A stretch of 24,000 nucleotides of DNA from Patescibacteria group bacterium (GTDB taxonomy: Bacteria; Patescibacteriota; UBA1384; CAILIB01). The notes under the pieces were generated by a model, which worked only from the letters and a program-made list of their open reading frames with translations, did no database searches and had not been told where the DNA came from. The translations under genes and the position numbers were made by a program. Below are positions 17,132 through 21,960 of the stretch, in pieces; position 1 is the first letter of the stretch; each line of letters opens with the position of its first letter. The DNA lies in the NCBI GenBank assembly GCA_022842085.1, contig JALHQF010000006.1, forward strand, positions 1 through 24,000, given 5' to 3'.

Positions 17132-17481
17132 TCACAACCCGGTAAGGTCGGAGCAAGCGAAAGCTTGAGGAACGTCCGGGCGCGACGAGCGACCGTTGTT
17201 GGTGCAAGCCAACCCAGCGTGAGCTGAGCGATAGGACAACAGAAACTACACCGCCGATGGCCGCAAGGCACAGGTAAGGGCGAACCCGTGCGGTAAGAGC
17301 GCACGCTGCACCTTGGCAACAAGGGCAGGGGCAACCCGAACGGCGCGCAACACGGGCTGGGCCTCGTGCGTCAACGACGCTCGCGGAGACACGAGGATCC
17401 CGTGGCTGAGAGAGATTCCGACCACCTGTACTCCCGTGAGGGACGCAGGCACAGAACCCGGCGTACCAGCCGGGTTGTGAC
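17132..17481 (+). ncRNA. rnpB: RNase P RNA, bacterial type A
   Basis: P1 pairs CACAACCCGG (17133-17142) with CCGGGTTGTG (17470-17479). The conserved P4 strands are GAGGAACGTCCGGGC (17167-17181) and ACAGAACCCGGCGTACC (17451-17467). Also present are CAGGTAAGGGCGAACCCGTGCGGTAAGAGCGCAC (17271-17304) and ACAGAAACTACACCGCCGATGGCC. These match the universal RNase P RNA core. The ends are approximate, within a few nt. Confidence 0.9.
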
Positions 17482-17871: not shown

Positions 17872-18468
17872 ATGCAGCTTAGACAACTCGCTATAGCACT
17901 CCTTCTCGTTACATTCGCTGCACCCTGCATGGCTGTAGTAGAGACCCGCATTTCGGTGAAGGATCACACATTTGTTGTATACGCTACTCCGCAAGGCGCA
18001 ACGTACGCGCAGGTGCGTCGTGATGCACCTTCGGCAGTGCATGTGCTAACAGGTGCATACTTTGTGAATCGAGATACTGGTGATTTTCGGCCAGTTGACT
18101 TTCTCCGAAGTGAAGGGCGCACGCTTGCGCCACACCTGCGGCACCGACGACCAATCCTCGCGTTTCCACGCAGCGGTCCACCGTTTATTACCAAGGATGC
18201 TGCCTGCTTACGCGATCCACGTGCGGTTCCGAATGCGCTTGCTGGCCACGGGTGGGCAACCTACCCAAACTGGCGTCTCGCCCGTCACGCCATTGTCCTA
18301 AAGGACGGCTACCTCATCGACCTTCGCTACAGGTCGCAAACCGCCCAAGGCGTAGTCGATCACATTACGCAAACGTACGGTGCGGTTCCATTCCTCTTCC
18401 TCGATGGAGGTTCAACGCTTGCTCCTGGCGCCAAGGGCGGGAGTTGGATCATCGTTCGCAGAAGGTAA
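17872..18468 (+). CDS. secreted phosphodiester glycosidase-like (NAGPA/DUF2233-like) protein
   Basis: I chose the ATG at 17872 (MQLRQLAIALLLVTFAAPCMA, a signal-peptide-like start preceded by AGGAAA). The body shows the loose DUF2233 pattern: GAYF...P.DFLRSEGR...ARHAIVLKDGYLIDL...GAVPFLFLDGGST. This is a motif-level call only. Confidence 0.5.
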   Translation: MQLRQLAIALLLVTFAAPCMAVVETRISVKDHTFVVYATPQGATYAQVRRDAPSAVHVLTGAYFVNRDTGDFRPVDFLRSEGRTLAPHLRHRRPILAFPRSGPPFITKDAACLRDPRAVPNALAGHGWATYPNWRLARHAIVLKDGYLIDLRYRSQTAQGVVDHITQTYGAVPFLFLDGGSTLAPGAKGGSWIIVRRR

Positions 18469-18536
18469 CACGGCCAGGCCCATCGAGGTCTGGCTTTTCC
18501 CTTCCCAGAGCCAAAACGTCCTGTCATGCTAGCTAC

Positions 18537-19883
18537 ATGCGACGCGTTCTCGTAACCCTTACCACACTCTTCCTCCTTGCGCCTCTGGGGCAGGTGCGAG
18601 GGATGGAGCCAACGTTGTTTGAGCCTGTGCCCATGGATGGACTACCGGCAGAAGTGCTGGATGAAGCTACCTGTCAGCCTATTGAGATCCTAAGCCCACT
18701 TGCAGCCGATGAGTACCTACCAGGTAGCGTCACGTTTGCTTGGGAGCCTGTAAGCAAAGAGTGCCTTGAAGAGCAGGGCATTGAAGAAGCGGTGTACCTT
18801 GTTCAGATCTACAAGATCAAGGCTGATGAGGAAACGATGTACGATGAGTTCAAGTCGTACGGCCCAGCTGAGGATCGTGAGCTTCTTGAGCCCGGGAAGT
18901 ATCGCTGGGTTGTCAGTCTGCTTGCTGGGGAGCCAATGTTCTCGAGCGAGCCTGACCAGGAGCCACGTTTCTACATCATCGACGAGAGTGTGCAGGTTCC
19001 TACCCTTACTTCACCAGTTGGTGGCGCCTGGCTACCTGAGGGTTCTACCCTCCTTACATGGAAAGGCGAACCCACCATCTCTCGTGCAGACGTCTGCACG
19101 TGGAATGTGCGCTATGCAGAGGTTGATGCAACCGAGTGGATGCTCGTAGAGGGCATCAGCGAAACTGAGCTCGAACTCATCCTCGGGGGAGGCGTCTACG
19201 AGTGGCAGGCGCAGTGCGAAACCTACTGGGCGCGTGGCCCATGGGCTGAGCCAGAGCTCTTTGGAATTGATGATATCGCTCCAACGGTTGGTATCGCTGG
19301 TTCAACGCCCCTCACGGTCGCGCTTGGGGCTACGCTCCAGTTTTCCGGCACTGCCCAAGATTTGGAGAGCGGAGTCGCCAGTCTCCGTTTCCGAATCATC
19401 CAGGGGAGCACTGAGGTTCTCGCCTGGACCAATGCCGCATCGCTCGGGGCATTTGCAGGATCAGCTGTTCTGCCAGCCGGTACCTATGAGCTACAGGTAG
19501 AAGCTGTTGATGCAGTTGGCAATACCACCACGGCTACCCGAGCAGTCAATGTGGTGGTTCCAACACCCACGCCCGAGAATGGGGGTATTGGCGGTAATCC
19601 AAATGGTACTACCGTGGTAGTTGCTCAGGTGGCAGCCCAAACTGCGCCAGTACAGGTTGCTGTTTCTGTTCCTGCCCCCGTGCAGCAAGAGGAAGAGGTG
19701 GCGCCTGCTACTCCCAGCCCTAGTCCAACTCCAGGCCAAGGTGAGGTGGCTGGTGCAGCCACTGATGATGGCAATACGGGAAGTACCACCTTCTGGTGGT
19801 GGCTTCTCCTGACGGCAGTTGCGTTCTTCATCATCTGGTTCCTCATTGCGCGTCGTCGCGACGAAGACGAGCAGCAGAAGTAG
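18537..19883 (+). CDS. cell-surface protein with signal peptide, repeated Ig/FN3-like modules and a C-terminal TM anchor
   Basis: I chose the ATG at 18537 (MRRVLVTLTTLFLLAPLGQVRG). The track start at 18252 overlaps the previous gene. Two related modules of about 100 aa are present (..SP....LP.GS..F/L.W....G.Y.W..). An Ig-like module follows (DIAPTV...GTYELQVEAVDAVGNTTTATRAVNVV), then a Pro/Thr/Ala/Val linker, a TM helix (FWWWLLLTAVAFFIIWFLIA) and the tail RRRDEDEQQK. Confidence 0.75.
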   Translation: MRRVLVTLTTLFLLAPLGQVRGMEPTLFEPVPMDGLPAEVLDEATCQPIEILSPLAADEYLPGSVTFAWEPVSKECLEEQGIEEAVYLVQIYKIKADEETMYDEFKSYGPAEDRELLEPGKYRWVVSLLAGEPMFSSEPDQEPRFYIIDESVQVPTLTSPVGGAWLPEGSTLLTWKGEPTISRADVCTWNVRYAEVDATEWMLVEGISETELELILGGGVYEWQAQCETYWARGPWAEPELFGIDDIAPTVGIAGSTPLTVALGATLQFSGTAQDLESGVASLRFRIIQGSTEVLAWTNAASLGAFAGSAVLPAGTYELQVEAVDAVGNTTTATRAVNVVVPTPTPENGGIGGNPNGTTVVVAQVAAQTAPVQVAVSVPAPVQQEEEVAPATPSPSPTPGQGEVAGAATDDGNTGSTTFWWWLLLTAVAFFIIWFLIARRRDEDEQQK

Positions 19884-19897
19884 CCTACCTGCAGAAG

Positions 19898-19921
19898 CGA
19901 GCCGGCCCTAGGGCCGGCTCG
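19898..19921. terminator. terminator hairpin between convergent genes
   Basis: CGAGCCGGCCC-ta-GGGCCGGCTCG is followed by TTTTT on the plus strand (19922-19926). It lies between the stops at 19883 (+) and 19929 (-). Confidence 0.65.
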
Positions 19922-19928
19922 TTTTTCG

Positions 19929-21005
19929 TTAGGCGCAGAGGCGAAGGCCAATGCGGTAGGCGTTATAGGCAGGGTCTTCCGTTACCTCTCTGCTGCCAGG
20001 GGGCAGTGCAAAGGGAACTTCTGGTGCACGTGTGGCATGGCGACTCTCTACTTCGAGGATCCGAGTACCATCCTCGTACGTGTCCAGCGTGACGAGCGGA
20101 TTGCCGGTCAGCTGCTCACGCTCCTTGCGAAAGCTTGGCGTACAGCTCGCAAGGAGCTGTTCCGCCGCTTCGCGCCCAAGGGCTGTAGTGAGCTGACGTC
20201 GCAGTGCGCCACTACCTGTTTTTACAACGAGCTCAGCACTGGTTTCGGTGATTCGCACACGGCTTTGTGGATTGAGGTAGCCTTGGCGTAAGAGCACGGG
20301 TTTCTCGAAGGATGCAGAGGGTCGCTCGGGAAGCACCCATCGTCGCTCGTGTTCAATGTTGAGCCAGTCTTTCACAACTTCGAGCGCTGCTTCAAGTTTT
20401 GCTTCGAGCGTTTCGAAGACAGGCACGAAGGAGATGCGGTTGCCACAGGCCTGTTGCCAGGCTTCGCGAGTACGCCCGCTGAGTGCCAAGGCTTCCTCTA
20501 CTGAGGCTTCGTATCGCAGGACGTTATTGTCCTGCGATAGGCTCCCATGCTCGCTCATGCTCTCTAGGTAGAGGACATGATCGTACATGCTGCCCAGCGC
20601 CTGGAGGTCATACTCGCCGGTTACCAGCTCAAGTGGTAGGTGTCCAGGGAGGTATGCCCGCAGATCTGGTGCGCCCCGATCGGTGATCACGGCGCGCAAG
20701 CTAAGATTTCGTTCTGCGTGCGCGTGAGCGACCAGCTCAAGTGGAAGCTGTACCCCCAGCACCGCGTGCTGAAACGGGGCAATCCAGGTTTCGAAGGTGG
20801 GTGCGCAGGGTGGCAGGTGTGGCAACAGGCAGCTGGCAACTTCTGGCACCGTATGTACCCGCAGGTGCTGTTTGAGGTGCCGGAGCACCGAAGACTTGCC
20901 GCTCTCAGGGCCACCCACGATGGCAATCGTGGGAACGTGACGAGGGGTTTCGAGGTAGGTTTTCAGGAGGTTCATGGTGGGTTCCAAGTTGGGAAGGGCC
21001 AACAC
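19929..21005 (-). CDS. P-loop NTPase/kinase (AAA_28 / NadR-RNK-like) fused to a CYTH (triphosphate tunnel metalloenzyme) domain
   Basis: 358-aa ORF with a GTG start at 21005 (ATG at 20975 is an alternative). The N-half has the Walker A IAIVGGPESGKSSVL, resembling the ILGGESSGKS of the NadR kinase domain. The C-half (about residues 216-345) carries the CYTH hallmarks NIEHERRWVL (ExExK-like), QGYL, VRI, FRKERE and LDTYEDGTRILEVE. Confidence 0.8.
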   Translation of the reverse strand: MLALPNLEPTMNLLKTYLETPRHVPTIAIVGGPESGKSSVLRHLKQHLRVHTVPEVASCLLPHLPPCAPTFETWIAPFQHAVLGVQLPLELVAHAHAERNLSLRAVITDRGAPDLRAYLPGHLPLELVTGEYDLQALGSMYDHVLYLESMSEHGSLSQDNNVLRYEASVEEALALSGRTREAWQQACGNRISFVPVFETLEAKLEAALEVVKDWLNIEHERRWVLPERPSASFEKPVLLRQGYLNPQSRVRITETSAELVVKTGSGALRRQLTTALGREAAEQLLASCTPSFRKEREQLTGNPLVTLDTYEDGTRILEVESRHATRAPEVPFALPPGSREVTEDPAYNAYRIGLRLCA

Positions 21006-21043
21006 TGCTAGCTTGCCCGTGCTGATCTGCCATTGCGATTAAA

Positions 21044-21063
21044 GTCAATTTGAGTCAACTTGA
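21044..21063. promoter_or_regulatory. tandem 10-bp repeat, each unit an interrupted palindrome (operator candidate)
   Basis: GTCAAtTTGA (21044-21053) is directly followed by GTCAAcTTGA (21054-21063). Each contains TCAA-N-TTGA. The repeat ends 4 nt before the ATG at 21068 of the wHTH-Nudix gene, in the divergent intergenic region. Confidence 0.35.
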
Positions 21064-21067
21064 TGTT

Positions 21068-21751
21068 ATGCAATTTCACGACGTGCAGCTTGGTGTACTT
21101 GGCAGCCTTGCAGCAAAGGGTCCCCAGCGATTTGGGCAGCTACGCCCACGTGACATTGAGACGAACCGGTTCTCCTACCACCTCCGCCGACTCCTCGCGC
21201 TTGGCTACCTGCGGCACCGAACCCCTTTCTACGAGCTTACGCCAGACGGCTATCGGTTTGCAGCCGGAATGAGCGAAGAGAGTGGGGCTCTGCGCACACA
21301 GCCGGTGGTTGTTTCTATGCTCCTCTTACGTAGTGAAGACCGAGTCCTCACCTGGAAGCGTAAGCGAGAGCCATTCCTGGGGCGGTATTCGCTACCGCAC
21401 GGCAAGCTCCACCTTGGAGAGTCAGTAGTAGATGGCGCCAAGCGCGAAGCACTTGAAAAGCTTGGCATTGAAGTGCTTGAGCTGAGGCACCTTGGTAACG
21501 GGTACCTTCGTCTCTACGAAGGCAAAGTGATCGTTGCACACCTCTTTATCCACCTCACGGAGGTTGCAAGGTGGCGAGGGGAGCTTCCTGATTCGTGTAC
21601 CTGGCAGGTGCCCGGCGAAGTTACTGAATCTGAAACCTTGCCAGGCTTTTCGGAGATTTGTGCAGCAGCTGAAACTTGGGAGCAAGGGCAGGGATTCTTC
21701 GAGATCTCCATGCACCTACCCGAACGCTGGCGTTCGATCCCTGGAAGGTAG
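21068..21751 (+). CDS. winged-helix DNA-binding domain fused to a Nudix domain (putative ligand-sensing regulator)
   Basis: The N-terminus LGVLGSLAAKGPQRFGQLRP...NRFSYHLRRLLALGYLRH...YELTPDGYRF is a wHTH (MarR/ArsR-like). The Nudix box GKLHLGESVVDGAKREALEKLGI fits GX5EX7REUXEEXGU, except that the second Glu of EE is Lys. I chose the ATG at 21068. The track TTG at 21050 lies inside the repeat. Confidence 0.8.
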   Translation: MQFHDVQLGVLGSLAAKGPQRFGQLRPRDIETNRFSYHLRRLLALGYLRHRTPFYELTPDGYRFAAGMSEESGALRTQPVVVSMLLLRSEDRVLTWKRKREPFLGRYSLPHGKLHLGESVVDGAKREALEKLGIEVLELRHLGNGYLRLYEGKVIVAHLFIHLTEVARWRGELPDSCTWQVPGEVTESETLPGFSEICAAAETWEQGQGFFEISMHLPERWRSIPGR

Positions 21752-21787
21752 ACCTGCAACCTGATTTTCGCTACCGTACGTGAGCGT

Positions 21788-21862
21788 TGGGACGTGGCCA
21801 AATGGTAAGGCGGCGGCCTTTGGAGCCGAAGATTGTAGGTTCGAGTCCTACCGTCCCAGCCA
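21788..21862 (+). tRNA. tRNA-Gln (anticodon UUG), CCA encoded
   Basis: Hand fold: acceptor TGGGACG/CGTCCCA (U1-A72), D arm GCCAAATGGTAAGGC, anticodon stem CGGC/GCCG with loop CTTTGGA (UUG), variable loop AGATT, and T arm GTAGG-TTCGAGT-CCTAC. The discriminator is G, followed by CCA. It closely parallels E. coli tRNA-Gln. Confidence 0.9.
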
Positions 21863-21899
21863 AGAGAAGCAGCAACTGAAAGGTTGCTGCTTCTCTTGG
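21860..21899 (+). terminator. long hairpin immediately after (and including) the tRNA CCA end
   Basis: CCAAGAGAAGCAGCAAC-tgaaag-GTTGCTGCTTCTCTTGG, a perfect 17-bp stem, followed by CTTTAC (weak T-tract). Confidence 0.5.
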
Positions 21900-21960
21900 C
21901 TTTACTCGTGACGAGAACCGGAGGTGATGGCCGTAACTGTCGCAGGTGTATGCTGTGCCT

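Follow-up and report, generated by a model that had tools for sequence, protein, structure and literature searches.

What role can be assigned to an enzyme joining a P-loop kinase to a CYTH domain, when it is encoded head to head with a protein that combines a winged helix-turn-helix (wHTH) and a Nudix domain? The question is raised by a stretch of 24,000 nucleotides (contig JALHQF010000006.1 of assembly GCA_022842085.1; hereafter the window, whose positions serve as coordinates throughout) from a member of the Patescibacteria (candidate phyla radiation), bacteria whose genomes are tiny and which rely on nucleosides and nucleotides that they scavenge. The divergent pair spans positions 19929–21751, gene A encoding the kinase-CYTH enzyme and gene B the wHTH-Nudix protein (Table 1). 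A first-pass annotation had described this pair and read it as a self-contained circuit in which a Nudix-type sensor controls a nucleotide- or triphosphate-modifying enzyme; our analysis confirmed the observation and partly supported the interpretation. The explanation that we favour, and hold to be fairly probable, is that gene B encodes a repressor which senses nucleotides, controls its own expression and is linked to nucleoside/nucleotide salvage, with gene A as its local metabolic partner. Comparative sequence evidence gives strong support to the autoregulatory part, while control of gene A by gene B, suggested by the short shared intergenic region and the recurrent pairing, is the weaker part. 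As the annotation had supposed, no prior account of the kinase-CYTH and HTH-Nudix pairing was found: searches of full-text sources (some subscription journals being outside coverage), also for Nudix proteins in Saccharibacteria, yielded no description of an HTH-Nudix regulator of the gene B kind, of a role for it in salvage control or of a CYTH-kinase-Nudix pairing.

The gene B family and its predicted operator

Word-indexed searches returned very few gene B homologues, and a pattern scan over one genome per GTDB species yielded 163 relatives. Among the best 80 of these 163, from which the taxon labels were taken, nearly all were labelled Patescibacteria, with Saccharibacteria foremost, followed by Berkelbacteria, Parcubacteria and Daviesbacteria; the family, apparently undescribed, is thus mainly patescibacterial. 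Two loci carrying both the regulator and its motif (L018 and L054) are labelled ‘uncultured Gammaproteobacteria’, which could reflect mis-binning or horizontal transfer. All family counts given below (alignment, operator and neighbours) refer to 86 members or loci.

The two-domain structure that the first-pass annotation had assigned to gene B was confirmed. In the AlphaFold model (pLDDT 84.7), the N-terminal part displays an H-H-H-beta-beta topology with pLDDT >85 (helices at residues 5–17, 22–25 and 32–44, strands at 48–51 and 54–57, then a helix at 59–66), and the winged-helix-like Pfam model DUF7347 matches 72 of the 86 family members (best E=7e-7), in addition to HTH_45 in 13 members and HTH_12, HTH_27 and HTH_20 in some. 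The Pfam NUDIX model matches gene B itself (E=3e-11, residues 85–187), and the domain order (wHTH at residues 1–66, then Nudix at 79–181) is indeed opposite to that of NrtR, as had been noticed. Concerning the fold, Foldseek placed the MTH1/MutT-type NTP pyrophosphatases nearest to the Nudix domain (E=2e-10), and the family profile searched against the Protein Data Bank (PDB) matched MutT-type proteins at 1e-8 and AraR (5bs6, NrtR family) at 7e-6, the latter with the Nudix part alone.

The GX5EX7REUXEEXGU box of gene B is whole apart from its last Glu, which is replaced by Lys, so that the motif reads REALEK (codons 21443–21460, the Lys codon being 21458–21460), exactly as first annotated. In the family alignment, all 86 members have the Arg and the Lys of REUxEK, and each of the two remaining Glu is conserved in at least 90% of them; since the Lys is invariant, the altered box must be regarded as a family hallmark and not as an accident of one genome. 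We take this Lys to occupy the position of MutT Glu57, a residue whose loss reportedly reduces kcat by some five orders of magnitude, according to published MutT mutagenesis. By fold and Pfam match gene B belongs to the Nudix superfamily, but the catalytic competence of its Nudix domain is, from its sequence, doubtful.

The position of the palindrome depends on where the two genes begin. The longest open reading frame (ORF) of gene A has 358 aa from GTG 21005 and that of gene B has 233 aa from TTG 21050, but most likely the true starts are the shorter ones, ATG 20975 (348 aa) and ATG 21068 (227 aa), which match the NCBI forms of both proteins. Given these starts, the control region measures 92 bp, and the earlier figure of about 60 bp has to be corrected. 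The conserved operator core opens with the very TTG at 21050 that the longest ORF takes as its ‘start’.

Exact copies of the palindrome TTGA(G/C)TCAA were found at most 80 bp 5′ of the regulator gene in 84 of the 86 loci. Indeed, 91 of the 101 exact TTGAsTCAA copies in 808 kb sit within 80 bp upstream of a regulator, an enrichment of ~1000-fold over the remainder. The site is often extended to ATTTGAsTCAAAT, and its symmetric position weight matrix reads aATTTGAsTCAAAT. Its flanks are symmetric (T/A, A/T), and the centre is occupied by G 61 times and by C 31 times, which is the pattern that recognition by a symmetric dimer would produce. The ATG lies 2 nt past the site in 49 loci, and in many Saccharibacteria a TATAAT hexamer stands immediately 5′ of it. 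That a palindrome tracks the gene in nearly every locus strongly suggests a regulatory role for gene B. Conservation of the motif for coding reasons, as the TTG start might have implied, was rejected: in almost every locus the site stands 5′ of the ATG, and it exists in both G- and C-centred forms.

In the window, the core TTGAGTCAA occurs once, compared to 0.2 occurrences expected. The tandem palindromic repeat noticed at first is real in so far as TCAAnTTGA units at 21045–21053 and 21055–21063 flank and overlap this core, but the register conserved over the family is TTGAsTCAA and not that of the repeat. The same segment contains a 10-nt direct repeat, with a degenerate upstream copy (ATTAAAGTCA / ATTTGAGTCA, 10-bp spacing, 21038–21063), and the 19-bp quasi-palindrome TCAAnTTGAGTCAAnTTGA (21045–21063) is limited to the window and its close relatives L002, L003 and L005. 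A second element stands at fixed spacing in other loci. At 10 sites it is CTAG(T/A)C, beginning 14 nt 5′ of the core; at 36 sites it is TAGAAAGT, beginning 13 nt 5′ of the core, and these 36 are drawn from only 61 occurrences of TAGAAAGT on both strands of 790 kb. This element, present in most Saccharibacteria loci (and in L001, L004, L007, L008, L013, L014, L024 and L030), may be a second half-site or a promoter element; the window carries TTAAAGTCAAT in its place.

Additional TTGAsTCAA copies up to 5 kb away from the regulator are mostly intragenic and chance-like, and no wider TTGAsTCAA regulon could be defined from the 86 loci. The exceptions are composite CTAGTC...TTGAsTCAA copies away from the regulator start in L013 (3012–3034), where the copy lies between convergent genes beside a terminator-like hairpin, and in L040 (4754–4793), where two further copies lie in the upstream region. 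These extra copies are possible additional targets.

A first alternative is that gene B acts mainly as an enzyme, namely a MutT-like house-cleaning or nucleic-acid-directed Nudix hydrolase for which the winged helix would serve as a DNA or RNA tether, the neighbouring genes belonging to a shared nucleotide-sanitising pathway. We regard this as unlikely, since an invariant Lys stands at the catalytic Glu position (again assuming equivalence to MutT Glu57) and a palindrome conserved at the start of the gene itself is what marks a DNA-binding factor under autoregulation. The enzymatic explanation can nevertheless invoke a nearly complete Nudix box, a fold nearest to the active NTP pyrophosphatases MTH1 and MutT, recurrent neighbours that are all nucleotide hydrolases or kinases (see below), and the enzymatic activity known from some NrtR proteins whose box is intact (PMC2330246). 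Both roles could coexist in one protein.

The comparison with NrtR also bears on the origin of the fusion. Like NrtR (PMC2330246), the gene B family combines a winged helix and a Nudix domain in one polypeptide, has a perturbed catalytic signature in a Nudix domain that would likewise serve as effector pocket, goes with palindromic operators (predicted ones in this family) and usually adjoins the metabolic genes concerned. In contrast to NrtR, its wHTH is N-terminal and DUF7347/HTH_45-like, its MutT/MTH1-like Nudix domain has one invariant E-to-K change where NrtR shows broad degeneration, its neighbours are CYTH-containing salvage enzymes instead of NAD genes, and its distribution is mainly patescibacterial. 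Membership of gene B in the NrtR family was therefore rejected on account of the reversed order and of the closer match to MutT-type proteins than to AraR; the family most likely represents a wHTH-Nudix fusion independent of NrtR.

Gene A and the enzymes encoded opposite the predicted regulator

Both halves of gene A hold as first annotated. Pfam AAA_28 matches residues 27–194 (E=1e-12, 49.1 bits against a cut-off of 27), the Walker A motif reads GGPESGKSS, and G31, P33, G36, K37, D109, R110 and G111, with the DRG motif included, are invariant in the family alignment A1. Foldseek with the N-terminal half of the AlphaFold model (pLDDT 83.8, pTM 0.79) retrieved thymidylate kinase, deoxycytidine kinase (dCK) and the ribosylnicotinamide kinase domain of NadR, with thymidylate kinase and dCK ranking better than NadR (6gyf, E=7e-4). 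NCBIfam gave nothing specific on gene A, its NadR model reaching E=0.3 on the P-loop alone.

As for the C-terminal half, the predicted structure is a series of consecutive beta-strands, and the Pfam CYTH model matched neither gene A nor its close relatives; because of this silence, the CYTH assignment required a family profile searched against the PDB as well as the structure model. The profile of gene A and its homologues matched NeuTTM (2fbl/3typ) at E ~1e-6 over the entire C-terminal domain, and Foldseek with the model matched 2fbl at E=5e-7 and, over its full length, the kinase+TTM module of AtTTM1 (7z67) at E=6e-7. The four domain assignments of the first-pass annotation are all upheld.

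Triphosphatase-type tunnel enzymes are defined by ExExK, xRxR and ExE motifs on a beta-barrel tunnel, and class IV adenylyl cyclases have ExA instead of ExE and have lost the central Arg of xRxR (PMC8233210). Aligned with NeuTTM and with relatives, the CYTH domain of gene A displays EHERR (ExExK with K replaced by R), QGYL, RVR, the strand K, KER and EVE. EVE and RVR do not fit a class IV adenylyl cyclase, and because ExExK (K to R), xRxR and ExE are all present, the domain looks like a competent triphosphatase, and not a cyclase or a dead module.

NeuTTM/CthTTM (2fbl, 3typ) are the nearest relatives of this C-terminus in sequence and fold and share with it ExExK, xRxR, K, KxR and ExE. They differ in being stand-alone single-domain inorganic triphosphatases, whereas the domain is fused to a kinase in gene A and to an HD nucleotidase in relatives, and gene A has an Arg in place of the motif Lys as well as one degenerate acidic strand. 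The plant proteins TTM1/TTM2 share the kinase-then-CYTH order, the whole gene A model aligning with 7z67 (PMC9582702), and loci related to the window carry true uridine-kinase-family + CYTH fusions. However, the kinase of gene A is AAA_28 and not PRK/UCK, and the protein terminates directly after the CYTH domain, with neither a coiled coil nor a membrane anchor. Moreover, AtTTM1/2 are devoid of the ExExK and ExE catalytic motifs (PMC8233210) and the AtTTM1 tunnel is inactive and regulatory (PMC9582702), while gene A keeps ExExK (K to R) and ExE; the resemblance to the plant proteins is thus limited to layout. According to the original superfamily description, as cited in PMC8233210, CYTH fusions to nucleotide kinases and to HD hydrolases were among those listed.

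The divergent pair is co-conserved. It was found in L001 at ~32% identity and in the close relatives L002 and L005, and it recurs in four further Patescibacteria lineages. Over the 86 regulator loci, the gene at the divergent position encodes a CYTH + uridine-kinase-type (PRK) fusion in 26, AAA_28 + CYTH in 8 (including four from beyond the window's own clade), an HD 5′-nucleotidase fused to CYTH in 3, HD and CYTH as adjacent separate genes in 4, HD alone in 7, CYTH alone in 3, AAA_28 alone in 2 and a small thymidylate/dN-kinase-like protein in 2. The HD-CYTH pairing is carried, for instance, by L074, a locus of the saccharibacterial genus Candidatus Nanosynbacter. Altogether, 44 of the 86 loci encode CYTH beside the regulator, and roughly two loci in three have some enzyme of nucleotide metabolism there. 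Such an exchange of enzyme domains, with position, regulator and operator unchanged, speaks for a functional tie and not for inherited gene order alone.

On the other side of the regulator, a MazG-like pyrophosphohydrolase (~110 aa) follows directly 3′ on the same strand in 24 loci, often after a gap of 4–8 nt (e.g., in the Saccharibacteria loci L006 2662–2991, L016 6584–6931 and L041 5608–6084), and a nucleoside 2-deoxyribosyltransferase is found nearby in 4 loci; the window has neither beside gene B. In one Saccharibacteria genome (L004/L057, 6693–7594), a protein with a PCC (PPC) DNA-binding domain and a stand-alone Nudix gene follow the regulator, and a CYTH partner is lacking.

Seen from the enzyme, the association is different. 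A gene A profile search over 1.84 billion representatives yielded 613 AAA_28-CYTH clusters at E<1e-30; among the best 150 matches, many align collinearly from end to end (kinase, then CYTH), and in many others the kinase match falls in the C-terminal half (e.g., P0005, of reversed order). In the neighbourhoods of AAA_28-CYTH genes from 80 metagenome loci, no neighbour was common to more than four loci. The link from regulator to CYTH is one-sided, AAA_28-CYTH enzymes being mostly without the regulator. With several CYTH architectures and MazG attached to the regulator, the pair can no longer be described as the self-contained circuit first proposed.

These neighbours weigh as well on NAD-salvage control in the style of NrtR/NadR, which had been among the first suggestions and in which AAA_28 would be a ribosylnicotinamide kinase and the Nudix domain a sensor of ADP-ribose. 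AAA_28 does include the NadR kinase domain, which Foldseek retrieved, and NrtR (PMC2330246) offers the precedent of an ADP-ribose-sensing Nudix domain, with AraR matching at the level mentioned above. We nonetheless consider this reading very improbable: thymidylate kinase and dCK outscore NadR, the NCBIfam NadR model is confined to the P-loop, the partners in related loci (uridine-kinase-type enzyme, HD 5′-deoxynucleotidase, MazG and deoxyribosyltransferase) are not NAD genes, such genes being also absent near the pair in the window, and the Nudix fold resembles MutT/MTH1 and not ADP-ribose pyrophosphatases. NadR itself (HTH + NMN adenylyltransferase + AAA_28 ribosylnicotinamide kinase) likewise has an AAA_28-type kinase and combines a salvage kinase with nucleotide-dependent transcriptional control; unlike the window, where the genes are separate, divergent and without NAD context, it unites regulator and kinase in one protein of the NAD pathway.

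Proposed circuit and its weak points

In the favoured reading, the gene B protein would be a dimeric winged-helix transcription factor with a MutT/MTH1-like Nudix fold as its effector domain, the invariant Glu-to-Lys change at the metal-ligand position having presumably turned this domain into a nucleotide-binding pocket. It would bind TTGA(G/C)TCAA just 5′ of its own start codon and so repress its own transcription, and through the shared 92-bp region it would probably also repress gene A. A nucleotide-type ligand would alter its affinity for DNA; as the fold is MutT/MTH1-like, we infer that this ligand is not ADP-ribose but of the NTP/dNTP type, a derivative of a nucleoside tri- or diphosphate being the likeliest candidate. 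Gene A, which joins a nucleoside/nucleotide-kinase-fold P-loop domain to a CYTH domain with a triphosphatase signature, would act in nucleoside/nucleotide salvage or pool balancing in a salvage-dependent lineage. Its CYTH domain might either clear a triphosphate that the pathway produces as by-product or uses as substrate, or play the regulatory part of a triphosphate sensor that has been proposed for AtTTM1 (PMC9582702); for the window protein, the intact catalytic motifs favour the former option.

A broader reading, which we put forward as tentative and hold possible rather than probable, is that a Patescibacteria-wide regulator family arose independently of NrtR, reads the nucleotide pool through a Lys-disabled MutT-type pocket and governs a salvage regulon via TTGAsTCAA, with CYTH as a portable triphosphate-handling or -sensing module on opposing enzymes (nucleoside kinases and 5′-nucleotidases). 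Were this true, bacterial CYTH/TTM proteins would gain a definite part in keeping salvage balanced in ultra-small, host-dependent bacteria. In addition, a conserved regulator with a sharply defined predicted operator beside salvage enzymes offers a direct experimental handle in cultivable Saccharibacteria. A second, apparently independent Nudix hydrolase fold recast as the sensor of a transcription factor would inform on how enzymes become receptors, and the swapping of CYTH among two unrelated kinase families and an HD nucleotidase provides a testable context for the physiology of bacterial triphosphate tunnel enzymes.

Several observations count against the favoured reading. Concerning the proteins, only one residue of the Nudix box is altered, so that gene B may retain residual or full hydrolase activity, and the acidic residues of the mid-strand RxExE, kept in relatives, are degenerate in the CYTH domain of gene A. 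Concerning the loci, the divergent neighbours are unrelated genes in 31 to 33 of the 86; many of the 26 CYTH+PRK loci belong to related Saccharimonadia whose gene order is kept by descent, meaning that the counts are not independent; and the 80 metagenome loci with gene A relatives (at least 50 of them fusions) showed no regulator and no motif. Concerning the DNA, a sigma-70 promoter scan of 19800–21950 found no consensus promoter, the predicted operator adjoins the start codon of the regulator itself, and in Saccharibacteria the site is ~100 nt from the start of the divergent gene and no second site occurs there. With this distance and the single site, the enzyme gene may be controlled weakly or not at all.

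The last points lead to a narrower explanation, namely that gene B controls its own transcript alone (together with the downstream MazG gene where present) and that the kinase-CYTH gene, a neighbour from the same area of metabolism, has an independent promoter. It finds support in a site that abuts the regulator start codon in most loci, in a sigma-70-like promoter for the regulator lying 5′ of the site in L039, in CYTH+PRK loci devoid of a second exact site nearer the divergent gene, and in AAA_28-CYTH genes that occur elsewhere without the regulator. We judge it rather unlikely, although the least so of the competing explanations, because the intergenic region is just 92 bp, which would leave a bound dimer within reach of any gene A promoter, and because the recurrent swapping of salvage enzymes at the divergent position is hard to explain without a selective link.

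Layout of the locus and flanking features

The genes around the pair are those of an ordinary chromosome (UvrB, TrmD, S16, Fmt, Def, PriA-like, Der, signal peptidase, L20, bactofilin and UvrA), and the base composition is even throughout the window. Such housekeeping surroundings bear on the idea of an anti-phage defence or alarmone-signalling module, another of the initial suggestions, which appears extremely improbable. It is true that Nudix, CYTH and P-loop domains are each known in some conflict systems and that PADLOC gave a weak candidate, PDC-S07, on the Nudix domain (E=3e-5). Against this, the remaining PADLOC matches are confined to the P-loop, no relatives were found among 2.9 million viral contigs, and the CYTH domain carries the triphosphatase ExE and not the cyclase ExA.

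Table 1. Position of the divergent gene pair, its predicted domains and sites, and flanking features in the 24,000-nt window.
Feature	Position	Strand	Basis
Gene A, AAA_28 P-loop kinase + CYTH fusion enzyme, 348 aa	19929..20975	-	ORF list; identical NCBI form
CYTH / triphosphate-tunnel domain of gene A, NeuTTM type	19932..20351	-	PDB profile, Foldseek, motif alignment
AAA_28 nucleoside(-tide) kinase-fold P-loop domain of gene A	20424..20927	-	Pfam, alignment, Foldseek
Divergent intergenic control region, 92 bp	20976..21067	.	Sequence and start codons
Extended site (own lineage): degenerate upstream copy + 19-bp quasi-palindrome TCAAnTTGAGTCAAnTTGA	21038..21063	.	Direct repeat
Predicted operator core TTGAGTCAA, 9-bp palindrome, 9–17 nt 5′ of gene B ATG	21050..21058	.	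Motif across loci
Gene B, winged-helix + Nudix protein, predicted nucleotide-sensing regulator, 227 aa	21068..21751	+	Identical NCBI product
N-terminal winged helix-turn-helix domain of gene B	21068..21265	+	Model secondary structure, Pfam
Nudix domain of gene B, MutT/MTH1-like fold	21302..21610	+	Pfam, PDB profile, Foldseek
Nudix box GKLHLGESVVDGAKREALEKLGI of gene B, last catalytic Glu to Lys	21401..21469	+	Sequence; 86-member alignment
Class A bacterial RNase P RNA	17135..17481	+	Full-length model match, 151.5 bits
Long ORF, probable cell-surface protein	18252..19883	+	Weak Big_13 match, sequence features
Hairpin GAGCCGGCCCTAGGGCCGGCTC followed by TTTTT, probable terminator	19888..19933		-32.7 kcal/mol, z=-5.0
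tRNA-Gln (anticodon UUG)	21788..21862	+	

Between gene A and the convergent gene of 543 aa, a stable hairpin followed by a T-run is probably a terminator. A scan of 19800–21950 for consensus terminators reported none, and it likely missed this hairpin because the CTAG loop is itself self-complementary. The tRNA-Gln gene starts 37 nt past the stop codon of gene B, and the tRNA may be co-transcribed by read-through from the regulator transcript. Further upstream, the window contains an RNase P RNA and then the long ORF that ends shortly before the hairpin. This ORF has an internal signal-peptide-like start (MRRVLVTLTTLFLLAPLG), a weak match to the Ig-like model Big_13 and a C-terminus made of a hydrophobic anchor followed by RRRDEDEQQK; judging from these features, it probably encodes a cell-surface protein whose true start is internal.

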